Shown: one piece after another, positions 175 to 18,636 of the stretch
Numbering within the stretch: position 1 is the first letter of the stretch
Layout of the letters: each line of letters starts with the position of its first letter
DNA from: Gemmatimonadales bacterium
GTDB lineage: Bacteria; Gemmatimonadota; Gemmatimonadetes; Gemmatimonadales; GWC2-71-9
Length of the DNA stretch: 64,000 bases
Direction of reading: 5' to 3'
Assembly (NCBI GenBank): GCA_035763805.1
Contig: DASUAL010000133.1
Span: forward strand, 2,518-66,517
Translations under genes and position numbers: made by a program
The notes under the pieces: generated by a model
What the model saw: only the letters and a program-made list of their open reading frames with translations
Databases searched by the model: none
Told to the model about the DNA's origin: nothing

Positions 175-612
175 CTATCCCTTCGGAAGGGGCCCCCGCT
201 CGCGCGCCTGCGCCAGCAACCGCTCCGCGAAATCGAGGCGCTCGCCGAGCTCGCTCATATGCGACTCGAGCATCTGCACCCGGTCCTCCAGGTCGTTCAC
301 GCGGCGCTGGGACGGCGACGCGGCAAGGTCCTCCCCCGCGACCTCCCAGCGGGCCACGCGCAGGCCATCGCCATCCCGGAAGTCGCCTGCGGCGATCACC
401 ACGACGTCGTAGAGGTACCAGATGCCCGCCCCGCCGAGCGTAAGGCACATCCAGACCCCGCTCTGCGCCCGACCCGCGTAGAAGCGATGCAGGCCGAACA
501 CCCCGCCGATCACGGCGAGCGCCAGCGCCAGACCGCGGGAGCGCTCCGAGACGTTGCCCGCGGCGGCAGGACGCTCCCCGGAATCGTAGACCGCCGGCCC
601 GCGGCCCGTCAT
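175..612 (-). CDS. TM2 domain-containing membrane protein
   Basis: 145-aa ORF. Hydrophobic core carries the TM2-family signature (GGVFGLHRFYAGR). C-terminal coiled-coil-like tail. ATG at 612 lies 1 nt after the thioredoxin stop (614-616), so they are co-transcribed. Confidence 0.8.
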   Translation of the reverse strand: MTGRGPAVYDSGERPAAAGNVSERSRGLALALAVIGGVFGLHRFYAGRAQSGVWMCLTLGGAGIWYLYDVVVIAAGDFRDGDGLRVARWEVAGEDLAASPSQRRVNDLEDRVQMLESHMSELGERLDFAERLLAQARERGPLPKG

Positions 613-613
613 G

Positions 614-1090
614 TCACGCGCGGGCGGCCGCCTCGACGAGAGCGGCGAGCTGCTGGCGGTTCAACACGCCCGCCTGACGCGCCGACTCCCGGCCGTCCCG
701 GAAGACGATCAGCGTGGGGATGGCGCGGATGCCGAGTCGCTGAGTGGTCGCGGGGTTCCTGTCCGTGTCGAGCTTGATCACGAGCACCTCGCCAGCGCGG
801 TCGCGCGCGAAGTCGTCGAGGATCGGCGCCATGATCTTGCAGGGCCCGCACCAGTCGGCGTAGCAGTCCATGACAACCGGCACGTCGGTGCCGGAGATCA
901 CCCGCTCGACGGTGGCGTCGCTGACGGCGATCGGGCGGTCGAGGAGGATGGGGCGCTTGCACTCGCCGCACCGCGGCCGGTCCGCCAGCCGCGACAGGTC
1001 CACGCGGTTGAGCGTGGCGCAGAACGGACAGGCGACGGTCGCATGCCGGCTGACGGCGGCGTCGGAGCCGCTGGTCCCATGAGTCGTCAT
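614..1090 (-). CDS. trxC: Thioredoxin 2-type thioredoxin with N-terminal Zn-finger
   Basis: 158 aa. WCGPC active site (DCYADWCGPCKIM) preceded by two CxxC pairs (CPFC...CGEC), as in Trx2. Confidence 0.9.
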   Translation of the reverse strand: MTTHGTSGSDAAVSRHATVACPFCATLNRVDLSRLADRPRCGECKRPILLDRPIAVSDATVERVISGTDVPVVMDCYADWCGPCKIMAPILDDFARDRAGEVLVIKLDTDRNPATTQRLGIRAIPTLIVFRDGRESARQAGVLNRQQLAALVEAAARA

Positions 1091-1115
1091 GGCTGGTTGC
1101 TCGGTCCCTTTTATG

Positions 1116-1679
1116 CTAGCGCGTGGGGGCGTACCGCACCACCAGCCGCCGGCCTTCCTCGTCGTAGGTGACGAGCAACACGCGGCGCGCGGCGAGGGTG
1201 ACTACGGTGTCGAGAACGAGCCGGGCGGGGGTGGTCGCTTCCTCCCGATCCTCCTCGCTGGGCCTGCGCGCTCCCGTGGGCGTCTCCCCGTCGCGGGCGA
1301 ACCTCACCACCAGCACATGGCTTCCCGGCTCGAGCGTCAGCTCGCGGAACACATAGAGCGGCCGATCGTGGCGCGCCCCGGCGGCGCGCACAAGCTCGTC
1401 CACCGCGCGGACGCCGTCGAGGCTGACCCGAAGGCGGTACGGGGGGACCCGGCCCTCGCACCGCTCTTCCTGGCGCATGTGCACCGGGAGACGCTCGAGC
1501 TCTTCGGGAGTGAGGCGCCGGCATTCCTCCACCTGCTCGCCGCGCGCGCGCCAGGTCAGACGGAGCACCGCGTGCCGCGCACCGTCCGCCGTGTACGGCG
1601 CGCGCGAGAGCGCACCCAGGCCGAACAGCGCCGCCACGGCGATGCCGGCGCCGAGTGCGCGCCGCAGGACCGCGCTCAC
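1116..1679 (-). CDS. Hypothetical membrane-anchored protein
   Basis: ORF-track entry 1116..1799 trimmed. GTG at 1679-1677 overlaps the TGA (1678-1676) of the upstream gene (GTGA coupling). N-terminal hydrophobic anchor (LGAGIAVAALFGLGAL). No domain recognised. Confidence 0.55.
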   Translation of the reverse strand: MSAVLRRALGAGIAVAALFGLGALSRAPYTADGARHAVLRLTWRARGEQVEECRRLTPEELERLPVHMRQEERCEGRVPPYRLRVSLDGVRAVDELVRAAGARHDRPLYVFRELTLEPGSHVLVVRFARDGETPTGARRPSEEDREEATTPARLVLDTVVTLAARRVLLVTYDEEGRRLVVRYAPTR

Positions 1680-3256
1680 CGCGAGACCTCGCCCATGATC
1701 TTCTCGCACTCCCGTGACAAGTCGAAGTCGCTTTCCCGTGCAGCGGCTTCCAAGGCCGCGAGCGCGACGCGGAAATCCGCGAGCTCGCGCAGCACGCATG
1801 CCGTCTCGGCCTCTCCGGCGAACGCGAGGCGCACGCGCCGGCGGTCGACGCGGTCCCGCAGCTCGGCCTCGCGATCATGGTACATCCGCTGTTCGAGCCA
1901 CTTCCCGCCCTCGCGGTTCCAGCAGTCGCGCGCCGGGCACGCGATGACCAGCACGCCGCCCGCGCCGGCGCGCAGCACGAACTCGATCACGGACGTGTGG
2001 AGGCTGCCAGCACACGCGACCGCGTATATGGGGGCGCCGTGGAACCAGGCCCGGGCCGCGATACCGCCGGCCCCGCGGTCGCATGCGATGATTACGATGT
2101 CCCCCGGGCCAGGCCACCGGGCCGCGACGAACGCCTTCACCGCCGAGAGCTGGTCGCGACCGGTGCGCCGCGGCGGGCCGACGCCCATCGGCGCGCACGA
2201 CCCCGCGCAGATCCCGCAACTCACGCAGCGCGCGGGATCGACGCGGGCGACGAGATCACTCTGCTCAGGGCGCCGGTCGGCCCGCTCCACCATCCCGATC
2301 GCCTCGTACGGGCAGTCCTCATAGCACTGCTCGCATCCCGTGCAGAGCCGCTCGTCCACCGCCGACGGTAGCGGCCGTCGCTCGGGCGCCGGTCGCGTCC
2401 AGAGCGGCGCGAGCAGCGTGACGCCGGCGATCACGACCACCGCCCCCCAAACCACCCCGGACGAGAATGGGCGGGCGAGCGGGACCCAGAACGAGTAGAA
2501 CCAATCGAACGGCGCCCGGCCGGGGAGCGCGAACAGGTCCGCAGGGGGAGCCATCCCGACCGGCCAGAAGACGGAGATTCCGAGGAGCAAACCGATCACG
2601 GCCCACATCAGCCCGCGCGGCGGCAGGAGGCCCGGCCGCGCGACGCGCGACACATGCAGCCAGACGAGCAAGCCCATGCCGATCGGCAGCGCGATGTGGG
2701 CGAACAGATTGAGGAAGAAGAACGCGCCCGGGATGGGGTGCTCACCGACGAAGGCCCGGCTGATGGGCTCCGACAAGATGGGGAGGACGTCGAGCAGGCG
2801 CGCCCCCTCTTGGGCGAGCACCTGCCCCTGAATGTCCCACACCATGACGTATCCGGTCCAGCCGCACAACAGCACGACAAACAGAAGGGTCAGGCCGCTG
2901 ACCCAGGCGAGCGTCCGCGGCCCCCAGCTCCTCCCCTGGGCGAAGAGCCGAAGCGCGTGCACCAGGACCGCGACGACCGCTGCGTCCGATGCGTAGCGGT
3001 GCAACCCCCGGATCCAGCGACCGAACCACACCTGGTCGGTAATGCGGGCGACCGAGGCAAAGGGCGCGCCGATGCGGTAGAAGAAGAGGAGGTAGACCCC
3101 GGTGATCAGGACGACCAGCATCAGCGCGACGACCAGCGCCCCGCTGTGGTACAGCGGGTTGTAGCGCCAGCCGTAGAGCCGGTTCATCCAGGCGTCTGCG
3201 CGCGCCAGGACCCGGCGCGTCCCGCGCTGCAGGGCTGCCGCGATCGGCACGATCAC
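1676..3256 (-). CDS. Fusion protein: di-haem cytochrome b N-terminal-like membrane domain + 2x[4Fe-4S] ferredoxin + MvhD/FlpD-like (hydrogenase iron-sulfur subunit-like) domain
   Basis: 526 aa, GTG start at 3256. Two H-x13-H pairs in TM helices (HRYASDAAVVAVLVH; HIALPIGMGLLVWLH), as in cytochrome b helices B and D. Two CxxCxxCxxxCP motifs (CTGCEQCYEDCP; CVSCGICAGSCP). C-terminal IVIIACDRG...AVACAGSLHTSVIEFVLRAGAGGVLVIACPARDCWNREGG resembles the MvhD/FlpD family. Confidence 0.8.
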   Translation of the reverse strand: MIVPIAAALQRGTRRVLARADAWMNRLYGWRYNPLYHSGALVVALMLVVLITGVYLLFFYRIGAPFASVARITDQVWFGRWIRGLHRYASDAAVVAVLVHALRLFAQGRSWGPRTLAWVSGLTLLFVVLLCGWTGYVMVWDIQGQVLAQEGARLLDVLPILSEPISRAFVGEHPIPGAFFFLNLFAHIALPIGMGLLVWLHVSRVARPGLLPPRGLMWAVIGLLLGISVFWPVGMAPPADLFALPGRAPFDWFYSFWVPLARPFSSGVVWGAVVVIAGVTLLAPLWTRPAPERRPLPSAVDERLCTGCEQCYEDCPYEAIGMVERADRRPEQSDLVARVDPARCVSCGICAGSCAPMGVGPPRRTGRDQLSAVKAFVAARWPGPGDIVIIACDRGAGGIAARAWFHGAPIYAVACAGSLHTSVIEFVLRAGAGGVLVIACPARDCWNREGGKWLEQRMYHDREAELRDRVDRRRVRLAFAGEAETACVLRELADFRVALAALEAAARESDFDLSRECEKIMGEVSR

Positions 3257-3286
3257 GCCCGCCAGTGAGAGGGATCTTGCGGGGTC

Positions 3287-3311
3287 AATTTATCATATTA
3301 TCATGATAAAA
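3287..3311. promoter_or_regulatory. AT-rich operator-like element in the divergent promoter region (candidate Rrf2 binding site)
   Basis: AATTTATCATATTATCATGATAAAA stands out in GC-rich DNA. It contains the perfect 12-bp palindrome TTATCATGATAA (3298-3309) and the direct repeat TTATCAT / TTATCAT. It lies 12 nt upstream of the Rrf2 ATG, inside the 66-bp gap between divergent operons. Confidence 0.45.
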
Positions 3312-3322
3312 GGCACCTGGTC

Positions 3323-3730
3323 ATGCTCTCCCAGACGGCGGAATACGCACTCCGGGCCGTGCTCTACCTCGGCGAGCACACCGGCCCGGTGCGCGTGGGC
3401 GACATGGCCCAGGCGCTGCAGATTCCCCGCAACTACCTCTCCAAGATACTGCACCTATTGGCTCGCACCGGCGTGCTTGCATCGGCGCGGGGCAAGACCG
3501 GCGGCTTTCAGCTCGCCGTGCCGGCCGACCGCTTGCGCCTCCACCACATCATCGCGCCGTTCGACCGGATCGACGAGCGGCGCCGCTGCCTGCTCGGCCG
3601 ACCGCAGTGCAGCGACCGCACCGCCTGCGCGGCTCACACGCGATGGAAAGACGTCGCGGACACGGTCGCGTCGTTCTTCCGGGAGACTACCGTCGCGGAG
3701 CTGCTCAGCGGCGCCGAGGTCTCAGTGTGA
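3323..3730 (+). CDS. Rrf2 family transcriptional regulator (Fe-S cluster-type, IscR/NsrR-like)
   Basis: 135 aa. N-terminal MLSQTAEYALRAVLYL... winged-HTH typical of Rrf2. Cluster-ligand pattern C89-x6-C96-x5-C102-x2-H105. Confidence 0.9.
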   Translation: MLSQTAEYALRAVLYLGEHTGPVRVGDMAQALQIPRNYLSKILHLLARTGVLASARGKTGGFQLAVPADRLRLHHIIAPFDRIDERRRCLLGRPQCSDRTACAAHTRWKDVADTVASFFRETTVAELLSGAEVSV

Positions 3731-3755
3731 CTCCCACGACACCAGAGGAGGTTTC

Positions 3756-3932
3756 ATGACGGAGCGACGCAACAACCCGGGTGAGGCCACGGAAGATCAG
3801 CTCCCCCTGATGCAGCGGCTGTACGACAGTCCGTTTCTGCTGCTCATCGCGGGCATCGTGGTGATGGTCGTGTTCTACACGGGGTGGGGTCTGTGGGAGA
3901 TCCTGAGGCTCCCACCGGCGCCGCTCCCCTGA
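3756..3932 (+). CDS. Small single-TM protein (position and size analogous to ba3 oxidase subunit IIa)
   Basis: 58 aa (MTERRNN...FLLLIAGIVVMVVFYTGWGLWEIL...). ATG preceded by GAGGAGG. Internal start within ORF-track entry 3303..3932. Sits immediately upstream of subunit II. Confidence 0.5.
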   Translation: MTERRNNPGEATEDQLPLMQRLYDSPFLLLIAGIVVMVVFYTGWGLWEILRLPPAPLP

Positions 3933-3947
3933 CGCGGGAGGGCTTCC

Positions 3948-4499
3948 ATGAACACGGGAATGCAATCGCCGCGCGGAATCTGGTGGAAGCCGGCGGACCG
4001 CACAGAGAAGCTCTGGGTCGGCATCGCATTCGGCTGGTGCATGGTCTTGTTCGCCATGATGCCGCTGTGGCATTTGAGGGGGGCCCAAAACCCGTCCGGT
4101 ATTCGCCACCGCGTGGACCCGAGCGCCTACGCCCGGCGCGTGAACGAGTTCACCAAGCAGTACAAAGTCGGCGAGGAAGCAGGATTCGCGATCGTCGAGC
4201 CGCCACCGGGCAGCGACGTCTACCTGATGGGCCGCATGTGGGCGTGGGAGCCGATTCTCAAGCTGCAGAAGGGCGTGGAATACACGCTCCACCTCTCGTC
4301 GCTCGACCTGAACCACGGGTTCAGCCTGCAACCGGTGAACCTCAATTTCCAGGTCCTCCCCGGCTACGACTACGGACTGCGCGTCGTCCCCACCGAGGCG
4401 GGCGACTTCCGGATGGTCTGCAACGAGTTTTGCGGCATCGGTCACCATCTCATGGTCGGCCGCGTGATCGTGGTCGATAGCGCTGGAGGTGGGAAATGA
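3948..4499 (+). CDS. Haem-copper oxidase-superfamily subunit II (single-TM, cupredoxin, CuA site), B-family/ba3-like
   Basis: 183 aa. One N-terminal TM helix. CuA ligands LNHGF ... CNEFCGIGHHLM (H, C-x-E-x-C, H, M). RBS GGGAGGG. Confidence 0.9.
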   Translation: MNTGMQSPRGIWWKPADRTEKLWVGIAFGWCMVLFAMMPLWHLRGAQNPSGIRHRVDPSAYARRVNEFTKQYKVGEEAGFAIVEPPPGSDVYLMGRMWAWEPILKLQKGVEYTLHLSSLDLNHGFSLQPVNLNFQVLPGYDYGLRVVPTEAGDFRMVCNEFCGIGHHLMVGRVIVVDSAGGGK

Positions 4500-6196
4500 C
4501 GGCCACCGCGATCTTCCGCACGTGCCCCACCACGGGGCTCAAGGTCAACGCCCAGGCCGAAGCGCTCATCAAGGCGAACGCCGTGGCGGCGACAGTGTCG
4601 CTGCTGATCGGCGGGATCGCGGCGGTGCTGGTGCTGCTCACGCGCTGGCAGGTGGTACATCTGCTGTCGGCGGCGTGGTTCTACCGCATCCTCACGGTGC
4701 ACGGGATGAGCATGCTGATCTTCTTCATCCTCTTCTTCGAGATGGCGGTGTTGTACTTCGCCAGCGCGGTCCTGCTGAACAGTCGCGTCGCGACCCCACG
4801 TCTCGCCTGGGCGTCGTTCGGGCTGATGATCCTGGGCGCGGTGCTCGTCGAATGGATGATGTGGGCGGGGCGCGCCGACGTGCTCTTCACCTCCTACGTC
4901 CCGCTCCGCGCCGACCCGCTCTTCTACCTCGGCGTCATCCTGTTCGCCGTGGGCGCCCTGATCGTGGTCGCCATCTTCTTCGGGACGCTCGTCGTGGCGA
5001 GGCGGGAGCGCACGTACCAGGGCTCGGTGCCGCTCGTAACGTTCGGCGCCGCGACGGCAGCCATCATCGCAGCCGTGACGCTCGGCCACGGCGCCGCCAT
5101 CTACATCCCCACCTTCTTCTGGTCACTCGGGTGGATGAGGGTCGACCCCGAGATCTACCGCATGGTGTGGTGGGGCCTCGGTCATGCGTCCCAGCAGATC
5201 AACGTCTCCGCCATGGTGTCCATCTGGTACCTGCTCGGCGCGTTGACGATCGGCGCGATCGTGCTGAACGAAAAGGTGAGCCGCACCGCGTTCGTGCTCT
5301 ACATCCTCTTCATCAACATCGCGTCGGCGCACCACTTGCTCGTGGACCCCGGCCTGCCGCCGGCGTGGAAGGTCTGGAACACGAGCTATGCGATGTACCT
5401 CGCCGTGCTCGCGAGCATGGTGCACGGCTTCACGGTGCCCGCCGGCATGGAAGCGGGCCAGCGGTTGCGCGGCTACACCAAGGGGCTGTTCGAGTGGCTG
5501 CGCAAGGCGCCGTGGGGTGACCCGGGGTTCAGCGCACTCGTGTTCTCCATCATCATCTTCGGCTTCGTGGGCGGCATCACGGGCGTCACCTTCGGGACGG
5601 AGCAGATCAACATCATCGCCCACAACACGCTGCGCATCCCGGGGCACTTCCACGCGACGGTCGTGGCCGGCACGGCGCTCGCGTTCATGGGCCTCACCTA
5701 CTACGTGATCCCACTGATCTTCCGAAAGCAGGTCGCGTTCTGGAAGCTCGCGAAGATCCAGCCGTACCTGTTCGCGGGTGGGATGTTCATCTTCACGGTG
5801 TTCATGACGTTCGCCGGCACGTTCGGCGTGCCCCGGCGCCACTACGACATCAGCTTCTCGCGAGCGCCGTTCGGCGTGCAGTTCAACCCGGCCGTGGACC
5901 TCGTCATGGGGATCATGGCGCTGGGCGGGCTCGTCGCGGCGGTGGGCGGGGGGATGTACCTCCTTATCACCGTCTGGTCCGTGTTCTTCGGGAAGCCGCT
6001 CGAGGCCGGCGCCCCCACCGGGATGTTCGGGGTGCCGCAGGGAATCAAGACGCCGCCGAAGCCAATCCCTGAGACCGCCACGAAGCACGGGCCGACACCG
6101 GGCACGCTGGTGCTGGTGCTCGTGTTTCTCGCGGCGTTCGTGGCCTACTACTTCGTGAACTGGAAACTGCTCTCGGGCGTCTGGAGGGTGGGCTGA
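4496..6196 (+). CDS. Haem-copper oxidase-superfamily subunit I, B-family-like, lacking the cross-link Tyr (candidate NO reductase)
   Basis: 566 aa. ATGA overlap with subunit II. LTVHGMSM (low-spin haem His), WWGLGHASQQ (CuB His, no Tyr at +4), SAHHLLVD (CuB His pair), GHFHATV (haem His pair). Confidence 0.9.
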   Translation: MTATAIFRTCPTTGLKVNAQAEALIKANAVAATVSLLIGGIAAVLVLLTRWQVVHLLSAAWFYRILTVHGMSMLIFFILFFEMAVLYFASAVLLNSRVATPRLAWASFGLMILGAVLVEWMMWAGRADVLFTSYVPLRADPLFYLGVILFAVGALIVVAIFFGTLVVARRERTYQGSVPLVTFGAATAAIIAAVTLGHGAAIYIPTFFWSLGWMRVDPEIYRMVWWGLGHASQQINVSAMVSIWYLLGALTIGAIVLNEKVSRTAFVLYILFINIASAHHLLVDPGLPPAWKVWNTSYAMYLAVLASMVHGFTVPAGMEAGQRLRGYTKGLFEWLRKAPWGDPGFSALVFSIIIFGFVGGITGVTFGTEQINIIAHNTLRIPGHFHATVVAGTALAFMGLTYYVIPLIFRKQVAFWKLAKIQPYLFAGGMFIFTVFMTFAGTFGVPRRHYDISFSRAPFGVQFNPAVDLVMGIMALGGLVAAVGGGMYLLITVWSVFFGKPLEAGAPTGMFGVPQGIKTPPKPIPETATKHGPTPGTLVLVLVFLAAFVAYYFVNWKLLSGVWRVG

Positions 6197-6200
6197 TCCG

Positions 6201-7088
6201 GTGAGGCGGCTCCGGGAGACGACGGCGGTCGCGGGGCTCGCCGCGATCCTCGCGATCACCGCCTGCTGGTGGGCACTAGCTCTCTGGCCGCTGCCGCCGA
6301 CCACACCCACGTGGCTGGTCCGCACTCGGGCGGTCTGTTTCGGCACGACGCCGAGCGGTCTGCCGGACGTTTCTGGATGGATGGCCCTCATCGGCCAGCC
6401 CGCGCTGATGCTCGGCACGCTGCTCCTGGTGTGGGGTGATGTGGTTCGCGCGGCGCTGCGGTCGCTCGCCGGCTCCGCCGCCGGCCGCGTCGCCCTCGGC
6501 GGCGCGGCCGCCTTCATGTTGGCGGGGACAGGAGCAGCTGGCGTGCGGGTGGCGAGCGCCGGAGCGGCGCAACAGCTCGCCGTCGCGCCCTCTTCCCCCG
6601 TCCCGGCGGAGTACCCGCGGCTCGACCGGCCTGCGCCGCCGCTCGAGCTGATCGACCAGCACGGCGAGCCGGTGACCCTGGCGCGTTTCCGCGGGCGGCC
6701 GGTGTTCGTCGCGTTCGCGTACGCACACTGCGAGACCGTGTGCCCGCTCCTCGTGCGCGAGGTGCTGCGCGCGCGCGAGCTCGCTGGCGACGTCGCGCCC
6801 GTGACGCTCGTCGTCACCCTGGACCCGTGGCGTGATACCCCGTCGCGGCTCCCGGCCATCGCCGAGCGCTGGGGGCTCCCTGGTGACGCCTTCGTTGCGG
6901 GCGGCGACAGCGCACTCGTGGCGGCCACCCTCGCGCACTGGAACGTGGCGCTCCAGCGCGACCTCCGCACCGGCGAGATCGCCCACGCGACACTCGTCTA
7001 CCTCGTGGACCGCGATGGCCGGGTCGCCTACGCCGTCAGCGGCAGCTCCGGGGCCGCGGCACTCGCGGAGCTCGCACGGCGGCTCTAG
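6201..7088 (+). CDS. SCO1/SenC family copper chaperone with N-terminal membrane domain
   Basis: 295 aa, GTG start. Thioredoxin-fold CxxxC (AHCETVCP) and a downstream conserved His (GEIAHAT). Located directly after subunit I. Confidence 0.85.
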   Translation: MRRLRETTAVAGLAAILAITACWWALALWPLPPTTPTWLVRTRAVCFGTTPSGLPDVSGWMALIGQPALMLGTLLLVWGDVVRAALRSLAGSAAGRVALGGAAAFMLAGTGAAGVRVASAGAAQQLAVAPSSPVPAEYPRLDRPAPPLELIDQHGEPVTLARFRGRPVFVAFAYAHCETVCPLLVREVLRARELAGDVAPVTLVVTLDPWRDTPSRLPAIAERWGLPGDAFVAGGDSALVAATLAHWNVALQRDLRTGEIAHATLVYLVDRDGRVAYAVSGSSGAAALAELARRL

Positions 7089-7162: not shown

Positions 7163-7591
7163 CTAGATTTCCGACAATCCCGACGCGCGCACGCGCGCCC
7201 AGATGTTGGCGGCAAACACGACGGCGGCCGCGACCTCGGCCAGCCGGCCGGCCACGGGCAAGATCGCCGCCCCCGCCCCCCGACCAACGATGGGCCCGAC
7301 CCCGGCGAGCCACACGCCCGCATTGAGCAGTGCAAAAGCAACCCAGGCCGCCGTCTCGCTGCCGTACGGCGAGCGTCGCACGCCGAAGCGCGGGAAGATC
7401 CACGTCGCGACCCCCATCACCAGCTGGATCACCCACCCCGCGACCAGGAACTCGATGTGTGCCGGGACCAAGCGCGCTAGCGTCGAATCGATTGGCAGTC
7501 CTTTGTTCCAGAGCAGCAGGGCGCCCAGCGTGAAGCCAAGCGCAAGGTTGACGAGCGACGCGCGGATGAACCAGCGGCTCACGACGGGCAC
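7163..7591 (-). CDS. Four-TM membrane protein, paralog B of a tandem pair
   Basis: 142 aa. Shares MP..SRWFI(K/R), H..LV.GW.IQ...GVA.W.FP and N.WARV motifs with the adjacent ORF. Confidence 0.6.
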   Translation of the reverse strand: MPVVSRWFIRASLVNLALGFTLGALLLWNKGLPIDSTLARLVPAHIEFLVAGWVIQLVMGVATWIFPRFGVRRSPYGSETAAWVAFALLNAGVWLAGVGPIVGRGAGAAILPVAGRLAEVAAAVVFAANIWARVRASGLSEI

Positions 7592-7598
7592 GGAGCCG

Positions 7599-8018
7599 CT
7601 ACCGCTCCTTCACCCGCGCCCACGTGTTGACCACGAACGCCATCCCGCCGAGCCATTGCAGCGCCGCCGATACGCCGAGCAGCCAGCCAAGTCCGGCCGC
7701 GGGGTGCACCGTGTGCGCCGGCTCGCCGAAGACCCGCAGCAGCAGCCCGAGGTTGAGGAACCAGTAGGACGCGATGGCGAGCCGGTCGCTGCCCCGGGGC
7801 GTCTCCTTGGAATGCTTGGGGAACATCCAGTAGGCGACGCCGAGGATCATCTGCGTGATCCACCCCACGACGAGGAGGTGGACGTACACCGGACCCGCCG
7901 CGGCGAGCACAGCAGGGAGGCCGAGGGGCGCCTGCACCGCCTGGGCCACGCCGACGACGAGGGCCGTGACGAAGTAAACGAGCGCCGTCTTGATGAACCA
8001 GCGAGTGAGGATGGGCAT
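7599..8018 (-). CDS. Four-TM membrane protein, paralog A of a tandem pair
   Basis: 139 aa. Roughly one third identical by eye to 7163..7591, and 7 nt upstream of it. Confidence 0.6.
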   Translation of the reverse strand: MPILTRWFIKTALVYFVTALVVGVAQAVQAPLGLPAVLAAAGPVYVHLLVVGWITQMILGVAYWMFPKHSKETPRGSDRLAIASYWFLNLGLLLRVFGEPAHTVHPAAGLGWLLGVSAALQWLGGMAFVVNTWARVKER

Positions 8019-8036: not shown

Positions 8037-8426
8037 TCAGGCGCCCACCACGGCGTCCGCTTCGATCTCCACGAGCATCTCGGGCTCCACCAGCCGACTC
8101 ACCGCCACGAGCGTGCTGGCGGGACGGATGTCCCGGAAGAACTCCCCGTGGGCCCGGCCCACCTGTTCCCAGTCGGCGATGTTGGTCACGTACATGCGGG
8201 TGCGCACGACGTGCCGGAGCGACGCGCCTGCCTGCCCGAGGGCCCGTTCGATGTTCCGAAGCGCCTGGACGGCCTGGGCGTACGGGTCGCCGACGCCGAC
8301 AATGTTGCCGTCCGGCCCGGTGGCAGTCGTCCCCGCCACGTGGATCGTGGCCCCCACGCGCACGGCGCGCGAGTACCCCACGATCGGCTCCCACGGCGCC
8401 CCGCTCGAGATGTTCTGACGCGGCAT
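8037..8426 (-). CDS. RidA/YjgF/UK114 family protein
   Basis: 129 aa. [18 protein letters not shown]...VRTRMYV...VEIEADA is typical of RidA-family deaminases. Confidence 0.9.
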
Positions 8427-8480: not shown

Positions 8481-9020
8481 TCAGCACAAGGCCATCTGAT
8501 CCGTGGGCCCTGCGGGATAGCACAGCCGTCCCCCCGGCAGCACCCGCGCGTGGGGCGACAGCCGATGGCGCTCCGGCTCTCCCGGGCCGATGATGTGGCG
8601 GACTTCGATGCCCCTTGCGACGAGAGCGTCGGCGAGCAGCTGGCGATGGCAGCGCCACGGCACCGCTTCAGCGCACAACACCGCGCTCGGTCGCCCGGCA
8701 GCCAGATCGATCAGGCGCCCCAGGGCCTGCGTGAACGCCGGCGTTTCCATGTAGTCGGCGTAGCCACGGAATGCGGCGTTGCGCCAGGCAGTGTTGGGCG
8801 AGCTCGCCTGCGCCGCGCGCCGCCCGCCGAGATCGGATTCGTGGCCGTACGCGATCCCCGCCGTCGCGAGGGCGACCGCGAGAGGGTCCTTCGCAAAGTG
8901 CGGATGGCGCCGTGACGCGGGATAGCGGCGCACGTCGACCACCTGGCCCACGCCGTGGGCCGCGAGCAGCGCTAGGAAGTCTTCGAGCGTGCGGGTGGAA
9001 TGTCCAACCGTGTAGATCAC
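8481..9020 (-). CDS. DUF488 domain-containing protein
   Basis: C-terminal 179 codons of ORF-track entry 8481..10316. GTG at 9020 gives VIYTVGHSTRTLEDF..., the usual DUF488 N-terminus. The upstream part of the long ORF is antisense to ada. Confidence 0.8.
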   Translation of the reverse strand: MIYTVGHSTRTLEDFLALLAAHGVGQVVDVRRYPASRRHPHFAKDPLAVALATAGIAYGHESDLGGRRAAQASSPNTAWRNAAFRGYADYMETPAFTQALGRLIDLAAGRPSAVLCAEAVPWRCHRQLLADALVARGIEVRHIIGPGEPERHRLSPHARVLPGGRLCYPAGPTDQMALC

Positions 9021-17499: not shown

Positions 17500-18636
17500 A
17501 TGCCCACCTTCGTGAAAGCCACTCAAGCCTACCAGCAGGGCCAGCGCACGCTGCCCGGGCGCTATTACACCTCCGCCGAGATCTACGCCGAGGAGCGGGA
17601 GCGCATCTTCAGCCGGCGCTGGGTCGCCGTTGGCCGCGCCGACGAGATCAGCCACCCGGGGGACTACGTCCTGCGGACCATCGCGGGTGAGAGCGTGATC
17701 GTGGTCCGCGGTCGCGACCGCGCGTTGCGCGCGTTTTACAACGTCTGCCGTCACCGCGGCACGCGGCTGTGCGAAGAGCCGCTCGGCCGCTTCTCCGAGA
17801 CGATCCAGTGCCCCTACCACGCCTGGACCTATACGATCGACGGTCAGCTGATCGGCGCGCCGCACATGAACGAAGTCGCGGGGTTCGACAAGCGCGACTT
17901 CCCGCTGCACCACGTGGCGCTGGAGGGGTGGGAGGGGTTCGCCTTCGCGAGCCTCGCGCGCGAGCCGGAGTCGTTCGCAGCAGCGTTCGCGCCCCTCGCG
18001 GGACGGTTCAGCCGGTTCAACCTCGTGAAGCTCCGTTCCGCGCGGCGGATCGACTACGACGTCGCGGCCAACTGGAAGCTCATCTTTCAGAATTACAGTG
18101 AATGCCTGCATTGCCCCGTCATCCACCCCGGGCTCGCCAGGCTCACGCCCTACACGAGCGGCGCGAACGACCTGATCGACGGGCCGTATCTGGGCGGCTA
18201 CATGGTGATCACCCAGGACGGCGGCAGCCTCACCACGAGCGGCCGCGCCTGCGGGGCACCGGTGGGGGCGCTACCGGCCGAGGATCTCAACCGCGTCTAT
18301 TTCTACTCGATCTTCCCGAACCTGCTCCTGAGCCTGCACCCGGATTACGTCATGTTCCACACCCTCTGGCCCGACGGCCCGGGCCGCACCCGCATCGCCT
18401 GTGAGTGGCTGTTCCACCCGGACTCGTTCGCGCAGTCGGGATTCGACCCGGACGACGCCGTGCGGTTCTGGGACGTGACGAACCGCCAGGACTGGCACAT
18501 CTGCGAGCTGAGCCACGCGGGGATCGCATCGCGGGCCTACGAGCCGGGCCCGTACTCTCCCCGGGAGGGAATCTCCGCGGCGTGGGACCGGGAATTCCTG
18601 AGAGCGATCGGGCACGCCGCGCGAGGGCGCGAGTGA
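17500..18636 (+). CDS. Rieske [2Fe-2S] non-haem iron oxygenase, alpha subunit-like
   Basis: 378 aa. Rieske motif CRHRG...CPYHAW. C-terminal catalytic domain with ECLHCPVIHP. Confidence 0.9.
   Translation: MPTFVKATQAYQQGQRTLPGRYYTSAEIYAEERERIFSRRWVAVGRADEISHPGDYVLRTIAGESVIVVRGRDRALRAFYNVCRHRGTRLCEEPLGRFSETIQCPYHAWTYTIDGQLIGAPHMNEVAGFDKRDFPLHHVALEGWEGFAFASLAREPESFAAAFAPLAGRFSRFNLVKLRSARRIDYDVAANWKLIFQNYSECLHCPVIHPGLARLTPYTSGANDLIDGPYLGGYMVITQDGGSLTTSGRACGAPVGALPAEDLNRVYFYSIFPNLLLSLHPDYVMFHTLWPDGPGRTRIACEWLFHPDSFAQSGFDPDDAVRFWDVTNRQDWHICELSHAGIASRAYEPGPYSPREGISAAWDREFLRAIGHAARGRE

Follow-up and report, generated by a model that had tools for sequence, protein, structure and literature searches.

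A fusion protein that joins a cytochrome b to iron-sulfur domains (FUS; 526 amino acids [aa]) is encoded on the minus strand at positions 1676 to 3256 of a 64,000-nucleotide stretch of contig DASUAL010000133.1 from a Gemmatimonadales bacterium (hereafter, the window; G+C content of ~70%). FUS belongs to a large family of membrane electron transfer proteins, none of them characterised, and its real conserved partner is a haem-copper enzyme together with the copper chaperone SCO. The original prediction, made from the DNA sequence alone, had placed FUS in an operon with thioredoxin; it overlooked this partner, as well as the signature of an eNOR-type nitric oxide (NO) reductase in the enzyme. 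The family probably supplies or services the linked haem-copper NO/oxygen reductase rather than thioredoxin, and its conserved pairing with eNOR-type NO reductases makes FUS considerably more interesting than its place in a thioredoxin operon did.

The three modules proposed for the single 526-aa open reading frame (ORF) were all recovered as significant matches to hidden Markov models. The cytochrome b module (aa 1 to 290; 2387 to 3256) comprises six transmembrane (TM) helices, A to F, and matches Pfam Cytochrome_B (E = 1.3e-15; aa 35 to 203) and cytochrome b6 in the Protein Data Bank (PDB; E = 8e-17); its two predicted H-x13-H pairs, the haem ligands of helices B and D, are H86/H100 and H187/H201. 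The ferredoxin module (aa ~295 to 360; 2177 to 2374) matches Pfam Fer4_7 (E = 7.6e-8; aa 305 to 354) and holds two [4Fe-4S] motifs, CTGCEQCYEDCP and CVSCGICAGSCAP. Both had been described as CxxCxxCxxxCP, a form that the first has (C305-x2-C308-x2-C311-x3-C315-P) and from which the second (C344-x2-C347-x2-C350-x3-C354-A-P) departs trivially, ending in CAP instead of CP. The C-terminal MvhD/FlpD-like module (aa ~385 to 500; 1757 to 2104), with putative [2Fe-2S] ligands C392, C415, C440, and C445, scores above the Pfam cut-off for FlpD (PF02662; E = 9.9e-9; 35.7 bits versus a cut-off of 22.3; aa 410 to 500). Residues 294 to 504 also align with the C terminus of HdrA2, which has the same ferredoxin plus MvhD order (NCBIfam; E = 2.2e-17), and the isolated MvhD domain matches solved MvhD chains (E = 4e-4), pairing VMCTGRV with VACAGSL and GCHFGDCHY with ACPARDCWN. 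The NCBI protein call from the same metagenome-assembled genome (MAG; Gemmatimonadales bacterium) is 524 aa long and 100% identical to FUS.

A word-indexed search with FUS returned 2,968 clusters at E ≤ 1e-5, the best 120 of which all have the same architecture at ~500 to 560 aa and 63 to 79% identity. An exhaustive search of 1.84 billion representatives (50% identity) yielded 432 at E ≤ 1e-30, and a profile search yielded 1,282 clusters at E ≤ 1e-30. The architecture is thus common to more than 1,200 protein clusters from at least eight phyla. Its members, mostly from uncultured bacteria, include Gemmatimonadota, Armatimonadota, Nitrospinota, SAR324, Bdellovibrionota (Bdellovibrionaceae), Methylomirabilota/Rokubacteria, “Deltaproteobacteria,” and Alphaproteobacteria. 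We set aside, as extremely improbable, the idea that FUS arose through misassembly, a frameshift error, or the chance joining of three genes: the same architecture and length occur in thousands of sequences from independent assemblies and on a finished isolate plasmid, and the AlphaFold2 model is highly confident. In databases, the homologues carry names that mislead or say little (“hydrogenase iron-sulfur subunit,” “cytochrome b N-terminal domain-containing protein,” and “ferredoxin”).

Directly downstream of FUS lies the gene for p187 (187 aa; 1116 to 1679, minus strand), a protein with an N-terminal TM anchor and a periplasmic beta-sandwich. The stop codon of FUS overlaps the GTG start of p187 (cgGTGAgc, read as ...tcg cgG TGA gcg...), the GTGA translational coupling to an anchored protein that had been read from the sequence earlier; what had been overlooked is that p187 is the detached C terminus of the same protein. 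Outside Gemmatimonadota, most representatives are 650 to 750 aa long, and 105 of the 150 best representatives are in a fused form, judged by a length of ≥600 aa. The extra C terminus of these fused forms consists of a TM helix and a domain that aligns with p187, sharing the pattern LRLSWR...C...EEL..LPxHMR...C...YRL..DG...G...DRP.YV...PG.H. Because p187 aligns in this way, the FUS and p187 ORFs are, on the evidence of the alignment, a split version of one membrane redox protein. The split form is also found on an isolate plasmid of Defluviimonas sp. SAOS-178_SWC (Alphaproteobacteria; NZ_CP156080.1), where the genes for a 526-aa and a 172-aa protein overlap by 4 nucleotides (nt); the 172-aa protein is 31% identical to p187. 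Another tractable organism that has the gene is Magnetospirillum magneticum AMB-1.

Hydropathy analysis of p187 indicated a single, N-terminal TM helix, and its AlphaFold2 model consists of a TM helix and a beta-sandwich (pLDDT of 88.3). A Foldseek search of the PDB gave no fold relative of p187 below E = 1e-3, the best matches (E = 5e-3) being generic beta-sandwiches, and a search of Pfam gave zero matches even at E ≤ 10. Within Gemmatimonadota, Cys53, His67-Met68, Cys74, and His121 are invariant or nearly so. Across the family they are conserved to a lesser degree (C53, 71%; H67 and the His-Met pair, 83 to 90%; C74, 72%; H121, 69%), and one entire divergent subgroup lacks the Cys/His-Met set. 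A copper site is possible in the main subgroup, judging from these residues. As general features of p187, a DOMON-like haem b domain, a cupredoxin, and a PCuAC-type copper site were each rejected, given that there is no family-wide invariant residue set, no Pfam match, and only generic beta-sandwich folds. Three representatives (P0241, P0256, and P0263) carry an additional Pfam Cytochrom_C domain after the last TM helix, and a fourth protein of this kind with a cytochrome c domain, RME88945.1, is listed without comment in PMC8756737. These fusions place the C terminus of the protein in the periplasm, beside a c-type haem, and suggest that electrons may be exchanged with that haem.

Divergent from FUS, on the plus strand of the window, is the haem-copper enzyme whose presence had been proposed earlier, accompanied by genes for an Rrf2-family regulator, a small TM protein, and SCO. 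Subunit II (CoxII; 3948 to 4499; CoxB, E = 1.4e-10; COX2) has the CuA ligands CNEFCGIGHHLM. It is followed by subunit I (CoxI; 4496 to 6196; COX1, E = 6.2e-63) and by the SCO1/SenC copper chaperone (6201 to 7088; SCO1-SenC, E = 9e-22). Between the Rrf2 gene and CoxII is an unannotated-looking ORF of 58 aa with a single, subunit IIa-like TM segment (MTERRNNPGEATEDQLPLMQRLYDSPFLLLIAGIVVMVVFYTGWGLWEILRLPPAPLP; 3756 to 3932, plus strand). Homologous ORFs of 48 to 60 aa precede CoxII in six other loci (L025, L026, L028, L031, L035, and L036), and this ORF probably encodes a small third haem-copper subunit, like IIa of the ba3 oxidase. In subunit I of the window, HH lies 32 residues beyond GHASQQ, and the window shares the motif GH[SA]SQQINV with 18 Gemmatimonadota loci and eight loci of other phyla. 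Replacement of the cross-linked Tyr by Gln is the eNOR signature (Table A4 of PMC8756737, after Hemp and Gennis, 2008), so that the window enzyme is, by this published criterion, predicted to be an eNOR-type NO reductase. The Rhodothermus marinus eNOR has been shown to be an NO reductase (PMC11214002).

The linkage between FUS and haem-copper enzymes recurs well beyond the window. Gemmatimonadota loci were collected by a single-protein contig scan, and loci of other phyla were reached via representative proteins and contig look-ups. The FUS and p187 genes are adjacent in all 22 Gemmatimonadota loci; in 21 of these, as in the window, FUS is transcribed divergently from (Rrf2)-IIa-CoxII-CoxI-SCO. 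In other phyla, a haem-copper enzyme is near FUS in 10 of 11 informative loci; the exception, L029, is a short Nitrospinota contig without a haem-copper enzyme nearby. Five of these loci (L023, L027, L028, L035, and L036) have an operon of the form IIa-CoxII-CoxI-SCO-FUS, L031 has the same operon with CyoE inserted, and L025 and L026 have variant gene orders. FUS is usually the last operon gene outside Gemmatimonadota, often overlapping the SCO gene directly upstream. CoxII is 44 to 88% identical in linked loci. Besides SCO, FUS is the most consistent nonstructural neighbour of these enzymes.

Genes for NO metabolism and for periplasmic electron carriers are found in the same neighbourhoods. 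L026, from an Armatimonadota MAG (1012 to 4453), is a compact NO-handling island, in which FUS overlaps an upstream NnrS-like gene and faces a cluster that encodes a NirK-like multicopper protein together with cytochrome c, hemerythrin, SCO, CoxI, and CoxII; a gene for a Crp-family regulator is close by. NirS is near FUS in L035, and hemerythrin is next to the p187 domain in L031. The NirK-like, NirS, and NnrS neighbours of L026 and L035 are consistent with an enzyme that reduces NO and not O2. Carriers encoded alongside are cytochrome c (L023 and L026), a high-potential iron-sulfur protein (HiPIP; L027), and a cupredoxin (L033); the last lies directly upstream of FUS, while CtaA, two SCO genes, and PCuAC are grouped at the other end of the locus. 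L033 (5205 to 9932) and L030 (2427 to 6461) represent a divergent FUS subgroup that is linked to true B-family oxygen reductases, with GHP[LI]VY (GHPIVY or GHPLVY) in subunit I. The periplasmic domain of this subgroup lacks the His-Met and Cys motif, and some members have a C-terminal cytochrome c.

Further proteins related to subunit I were observed at some of these loci. In L016 (1368 to 3337; Longimicrobiales), both kinds of enzyme coexist: a second, ordinary B-family oxidase (GHPLVY) is encoded a few kilobases from the Gln-type one, which alone abuts FUS there. A subunit I paralogue of 450 to 500 aa is present in the operons of L023 (5166 to 6584), L027 (4209 to 5561), and L028 (3711 to 5210). 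It keeps GGGH..Q and PGHYHA, is without the “HH” CuB ligands, and found no family assignment. Past SCO in the window are two tandem four-TM proteins of 142 and 139 aa (7163 to 7591 and 7599 to 8018, minus strand), paralogues with 34% identity that weakly resemble the first helices of subunit I (COX1, E = 1.7e-5 and 2.1e-7, below the cut-off). Four-TM ORFs of this kind recur near the cluster in L001; two directly follow the p187 homologue on the same strand in L022, and a single related ORF lies ~1.1 kb downstream in L003. From these positions, the tandem proteins are possibly part of the system.

Conservation was assessed in the window sequence and 105 fused representatives (106 sequences in total, 25 to 50% identical to one another) and in a second, independent alignment. 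The haem ligands H86, H100, H187, and H201 are 100% conserved. Seven of the eight ferredoxin Cys residues are present in all 106 sequences (C308, 99%), as are C415 and C440 of the MvhD module (C392, 99%; C445, 88%). Also invariant or nearly so are W118, G121, and G135, as well as three residues that surround the first His (R83, R87, and Y88). In the cd loop, W140 (96%) and D141 (99%) correspond to the “PWD” of b6 and the “PWG” of bc1. D251 (93%) lies in A-P-F-D-W-F-Y (P249-F-D251-W-F) and is the counterpart of the acidic Qo residue of PEWY; in the window, this motif reads FDWF and is immediately preceded by Pro, and other members have xDWF variants. Conservation of 93 to 99% at these Qo-type positions bears out the earlier view of the cytochrome b as quinone linked. 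The CxGG motif of haem cn is absent, its position being taken by H37 (12% conserved in the 106-sequence alignment). Qi-site features were not found from sequence, a comparison made without mapping Qi residues in three dimensions, and the chain runs into the Fe-S domains after helix F. No Rieske gene adjoins FUS in the neighbourhoods of the window or of any of ~36 loci. Among the window ORFs tested (to ~23 kb), the sole Rieske domain is that of a ring-hydroxylating oxygenase (17500 to 18636). With no Rieske gene alongside, no Qi-site features, and an MvhD wire, the system departs from bc complexes in defining features.

Hydropathy analysis of FUS gave six TM helices (aa ~35 to 60, 85 to 105, 115 to 140, 178 to 203, 212 to 235, and 263 to 287) and an Arg-rich N terminus. 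Six helices with the N terminus inside place the Fe-S and MvhD modules in the cytoplasm, where they had been expected, and the cytochrome c domain after the last TM helix of some homologues agrees with this topology. An AlphaFold2 model of the fused homologue P0138, built from 88 sequences, had a mean pLDDT of 95.2 and a pTM of 0.92, and Foldseek aligned ~290 to 350 of its columns with bc1 cytochrome b (E = 1.8e-7), covering helices A to F and the ef loop. The Fe-S/MvhD block would be an insertion in the loop after helix F on the membrane's cytoplasmic (n) side, and the p187 TM helix may stand in place of helix G and the beta-sandwich in place of helix H.

The two divergent units of the window are separated by a 66-bp intergenic region that contains an AT-rich palindrome of 22 bp, TTTATCAT-N6-ATGATAAA (3289 to 3310), preceded by cTTGCG. 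At least 16 of the 22 Gemmatimonadota loci have the palindrome in this position, some of them with no Rrf2 gene alongside. It overlaps promoter-like elements of both units, and a −10-like GATAAT on the minus strand (3302 to 3297) lies inside it. The adjoining Rrf2-family regulator (3323 to 3730, plus strand; Rrf2, E = 9.9e-27) has an IscR/NsrR-like C-x6-C-x5-C motif; the IscR and NsrR models match it below their cut-offs, and an Rrf2 gene is present in 13 of 22 related loci. The palindrome is a candidate shared operator/promoter and likely the operator of an Rrf2-type regulator. Given the Fe-S-type Cys motif of that regulator and the conserved palindrome, coregulation of the divergent units, possibly by NO or redox state, is plausible. 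The conserved divergent layout and the palindrome lend weight to the coregulation with the haem-copper enzyme that had been suggested before.

We tentatively favour the explanation that FUS is a dedicated Rieske-less quinol-oxidising input module for a haem-copper reductase, here of the eNOR type, in which an Fe-S wire replaces the Qi site. Such a module would consist of a bc-type cytochrome b (helices A to F) with two b haems and a Qo-type quinol site on the periplasmic (p) side, two [4Fe-4S] clusters and one MvhD-type [2Fe-2S] cluster that form a cytoplasmic chain in place of a Qi site on the n side, and a membrane-anchored beta-sandwich domain, p187, on the p side. Oxidation of quinol, the direction of electron flow, and contact with CuA are the parts of this scheme that we infer. 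(Mena)quinol would be oxidised at the p-side site near haem bL, with protons released outside, and electrons would leave the periplasmic face to the CuA of the reductase, either directly or via cytochrome c, HiPIP, or cupredoxin. The series bL-bH-[4Fe-4S]2-[2Fe-2S] would form a second electron path, from the same site to a cytoplasmic partner. We favour its role as an outlet for the second quinol electron; alternatively, it could be an inlet for a cytoplasmic reductant. A Qo-type split without Rieske or Qi, sending one electron outward to the high-potential reductase and one into the Fe-S wire, is favoured because every conserved feature gets a job, although we consider this specific step possible at best and somewhat doubtful.

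Several observations weigh against FUS as a quinol-oxidising input module. Nothing near the putative Qo site is known to accept the first, high-potential electron, and p187 has neither an invariant metal ligand set nor a cofactor-carrying fold relative. The window cluster and minimal five-gene operons (L036) encode no soluble carrier. FUS usually follows and overlaps the assembly gene SCO (with CyoE in L031), a placement just as suitable for an assembly factor. L031 comes from a member of Paracoccaceae, a family that normally has a bc1 complex, so that a second quinol:cytochrome c route would seem redundant there. At the MvhD end, no cytoplasmic partner is conserved in the neighbourhoods, and a three-cluster wire reaching ~30 Å or more into the cytoplasm is needless for simple transfer from quinol to CuA.

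In the chief rival reading, FUS is a reductase that serves the assembly or maintenance of the haem-copper enzyme, as CcoG is a cupric reductase for cbb3 and NosR keeps NosZ active; this is a possibility to be taken seriously, albeit one that we think rather unlikely. Electrons from quinol or the cytoplasm would reduce Cu(II), Fe(III), or a thiol of SCO or CoxII while metal centres are built or repaired, and p187 would be a periplasmic docking or chaperone element. The position of FUS directly after SCO in six operons, usually with an overlap, and after CyoE-SCO in L031 fits such a role, as does the retention of the gene in L031 despite the bc1 complex presumed for its family. The Cys...His-Met...Cys set of p187 (71 to 90% conserved; invariant within Gemmatimonadota) could bind Cu(I), and hemerythrin of the iron-centre repair type neighbours FUS in L026 and L031. 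The layout, in which a TM block, a cytoplasmic 2x[4Fe-4S] domain, a TM helix, and a periplasmic beta-sandwich follow one another, parallels that of CcoG, a parallel that we treat as a lead. However, the CcoG/FixG, NapH, and NosR families were absent from the Pfam matches of FUS and from the best 25 of its 41 NCBIfam matches, and its Fe-S modules are closest to HdrA2/MvhD. A conserved Qo-type site, two haems, and three clusters exceed the needs of a cupric reductase. The cytochrome c fusions and the cupredoxin of L033, placed apart from CtaA-SCO-SCO-PCuAC, point instead to respiratory transfer, and the p187 ligand set is not invariant, a whole subgroup being without it.

Two other alternatives would send electrons from quinol only inward. 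A half redox loop of the NarI/NarH type, with periplasmic quinol oxidation and both electrons passing through bL, bH, and the three clusters to a fairly high-potential cytoplasmic acceptor (e.g., a di-iron/hemerythrin-type NO-handling protein), would build proton-motive force, and the link to the reductase would then be regulatory, through a shared NO stimulon, rather than physical. The established geometry of NarGHI, namely a p-side quinol site, stacked b haems, and a cytoplasmic Fe-S wire, matches, and the ligands and Qo signature are invariant or nearly so. NO-responsive neighbourhoods, the hemerythrin beside p187 in L031, and a shared operator adjoining an Fe-S Rrf2 regulator are likewise consistent with it. 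We nonetheless regard this loop as decidedly improbable: no cytoplasmic acceptor gene is conserved (hemerythrin occurs in 2 of ~33 loci), the conserved periplasmic domain and the fused cytochrome c would be left without a role, and membership of the same operon as oxygen-reducing ba3-type structural genes (L030 and L033) would go unexplained. The original prediction of a quinol-linked conduit that reduces thioredoxin, or another cytoplasmic thiol, from a FUS-p187-TrxC-TM2 operon fares worse still and is very improbable. A TrxC-type thioredoxin with a Zn finger (614 to 1090, minus strand; Thioredoxin, E = 6.5e-24; Zn_ribbon_Thio2, E = 1.3e-8) and a TM2-domain protein (175 to 612, minus strand; TM2, E = 1.3e-15) do follow p187 as described; the four genes are codirectional, with gaps of −4 nt (FUS-p187), 25 nt (p187-TrxC), and 1 nt (TrxC-TM2), and MvhD usually has its place in heterodisulfide reductase complexes. 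Synteny, on the other hand, led us to reject TrxC and TM2 as conserved partners, and it supports neither an acceptor role for thioredoxin nor a functional unit made up of the four genes. TrxC adjoins FUS in none of the 22 Gemmatimonadota loci and none of 14 other loci, and across the same loci TM2 is near FUS in a single case (L018), distant and on the opposite strand. For thiol chemistry, the matches include neither an HdrB/HdrD-type CCG domain nor a ferredoxin:thioredoxin reductase (FTR)-type active-site disulfide. The redox potentials of quinol (~−75 to +100 mV) and thioredoxin (~−270 mV) also make this reduction impossible without energy input.

It is conceivable, though in our judgement unlikely, that FUS is the core of an unrecognised “Qo-only” respiratory complex that performs quinone-based electron bifurcation without Rieske or Qi. 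The electrons of quinol would be split between the haem-copper reductase outside (NO to N2O or O2 to H2O) and the MvhD-type wire inside, and the reduction of NO or O2 would pay for a low-potential cytoplasmic reductant made from quinol. If true, this would explain where eNOR gets its electrons in vivo. Reductases of the eNOR type are a widespread source of N2O, and their physiological electron supply and accessory proteins are undescribed in the searchable literature. Were FUS the quinol dehydrogenase of eNOR, it would be a third “complex III” solution after bc1/b6f and alternative complex III (ACIII) and a natural experiment in which a Qo site works without a Rieske protein. Were it an assembly or maintenance reductase, it would extend the CcoG/NosR theme to B-family enzymes. 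Either way, FUS is a marker gene for the annotation of eNOR operons, and the misleading database name “hydrogenase iron-sulfur subunit” is corrected.

The rest of the window adds little to this system. A 129-aa ORF past the cluster (8037 to 8426, minus strand) is RidA/YjgF-like by eye only and probably unrelated. The same holds for a 611-aa ORF call at ~8481 to 9000 (minus strand), which looks overextended; its C-terminal part alone is gene-like and, by eye, DUF488-like. Genes beyond ~8.5 kb (Ada, DinB, GMC oxidoreductase, amidase, Msr, etc.) are unrelated to the system.

Among known systems, the cytochromes b of bc1 and b6f (PF00033; PDB 6RQF, 8SMR, and 1EZV) share with FUS the homologous fold of helices A to F, four bis-His ligands with x13 spacing in both pairs, the WD of the cd loop, and the acidic Qo residue of the ef loop. 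Unlike them, FUS has no Rieske protein in its cluster, no Qi or haem cn features, and no helices G and H as such, and after helix F it continues on the n side with ~230 aa of Fe-S domains; its partner is a haem-copper enzyme operon, versus cytochrome c1 or f for bc1 and b6f. The ferredoxin and MvhD modules are homologous to MvhD and to the C terminus of HdrA2 (PDB 5ODC, 7BKB, and 8RVU; NF040770; E = 2.2e-17 to HdrA2 aa 568 to 773), and the conserved Cys residues of FUS align with the MvhD motifs. In the FUS family, however, this module is tethered to a membrane cytochrome in nonmethanogenic, mostly aerobic or denitrifying lineages, and no genes for the HdrA flavoprotein, HdrBC, or hydrogenase were present in the neighbourhoods examined.

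Dihaem quinol dehydrogenases wired to cytoplasmic Fe-S proteins include NarI-NarH, QmoC, HdrE-HdrD, and HmeCD; QmoC likewise joins cytochrome b and an Fe-S domain in one protein, and an MvhD-like domain is present in QmoB. FUS resembles them in its p-side quinol site, two b haems, and cytoplasmic Fe-S chain. Their cytochromes belong to the NarI/HdrE family and not to the bc family, have no Qo motif or periplasmic domain, and deliver electrons to known catalytic subunits. CcoG (FixG), NosR, and NapH are membrane polyferredoxins accessory to periplasm-facing copper or haem reductases. Like FUS, they combine TM segments with a 2x[4Fe-4S] domain in the cytoplasm and a further domain in the periplasm. 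Their genes accompany those of a particular terminal reductase of the oxygen or N-oxide pathways, which requires them. They have no haems and no Qo site; the role of CcoG is the reduction of cytoplasmic Cu(II), and NosR has a periplasmic flavin mononucleotide (FMN) domain. The resemblance is one of layout only, as no NapH/MauN-type TM block, FixG_C Ig-like domain, or NosR FMN domain was among the listed matches of FUS. The Rieske/cytochrome b complexes of anammox bacteria and “subfamily G/H” have Fe-S and flavin subunits (Dibrova, 2017, PMC5600118; PMC12954380). These likewise add cytoplasmic Fe-S redox modules to a bc-type cytochrome b, and the modules have been proposed to replace Qi as the destination of the low-potential electron, passing it to an acceptor in the cytoplasm. 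They keep a Rieske protein and NAD(P)-binding flavoproteins, whereas the FUS system has neither.

Small proteins already described beside NO reductases are a different matter: “orf1” of the norSY-senC-orf1 (sNOR) clusters and cbaD of the bNOR clusters are ~190-aa six-TM proteins (PMC3475470), and FUS was rejected as a counterpart of either. The main text of the eNOR paper (PMC11214002) mentions no cytochrome b or Fe-S partner. In the searchable literature, we found no report of the periplasmic domain, the split-gene form, the linkage of the family to eNOR-type and other B-family haem-copper enzymes and SCO, the eNOR signature of most linked enzymes, or the frequent cytochrome c, HiPIP, cupredoxin, NirK/NirS, and NnrS genes of the operons. 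The earlier statement that no characterised member is known still holds, but the architecture itself was noted in 2014, when Kao and Hunte (Genome Biol Evol; PMC4122944) named a “PDWF-FeS” clade of cytochrome b, without a function, and remarked that cytochrome b “can be part of other bioenergetic complexes.” Set against that description rather than against sequences of the clade, the window protein fits on every stated feature: a whole cytochrome b with its Qo motif, of the xDWF type, followed by a 4Fe-4S domain and an MvhD delta-subunit domain, and a gene cluster from which Rieske is absent. To that account, the present analysis adds a C-terminal TM helix and beta-sandwich, a split-gene form, linkage to haem-copper enzymes and SCO, and a proposed function.

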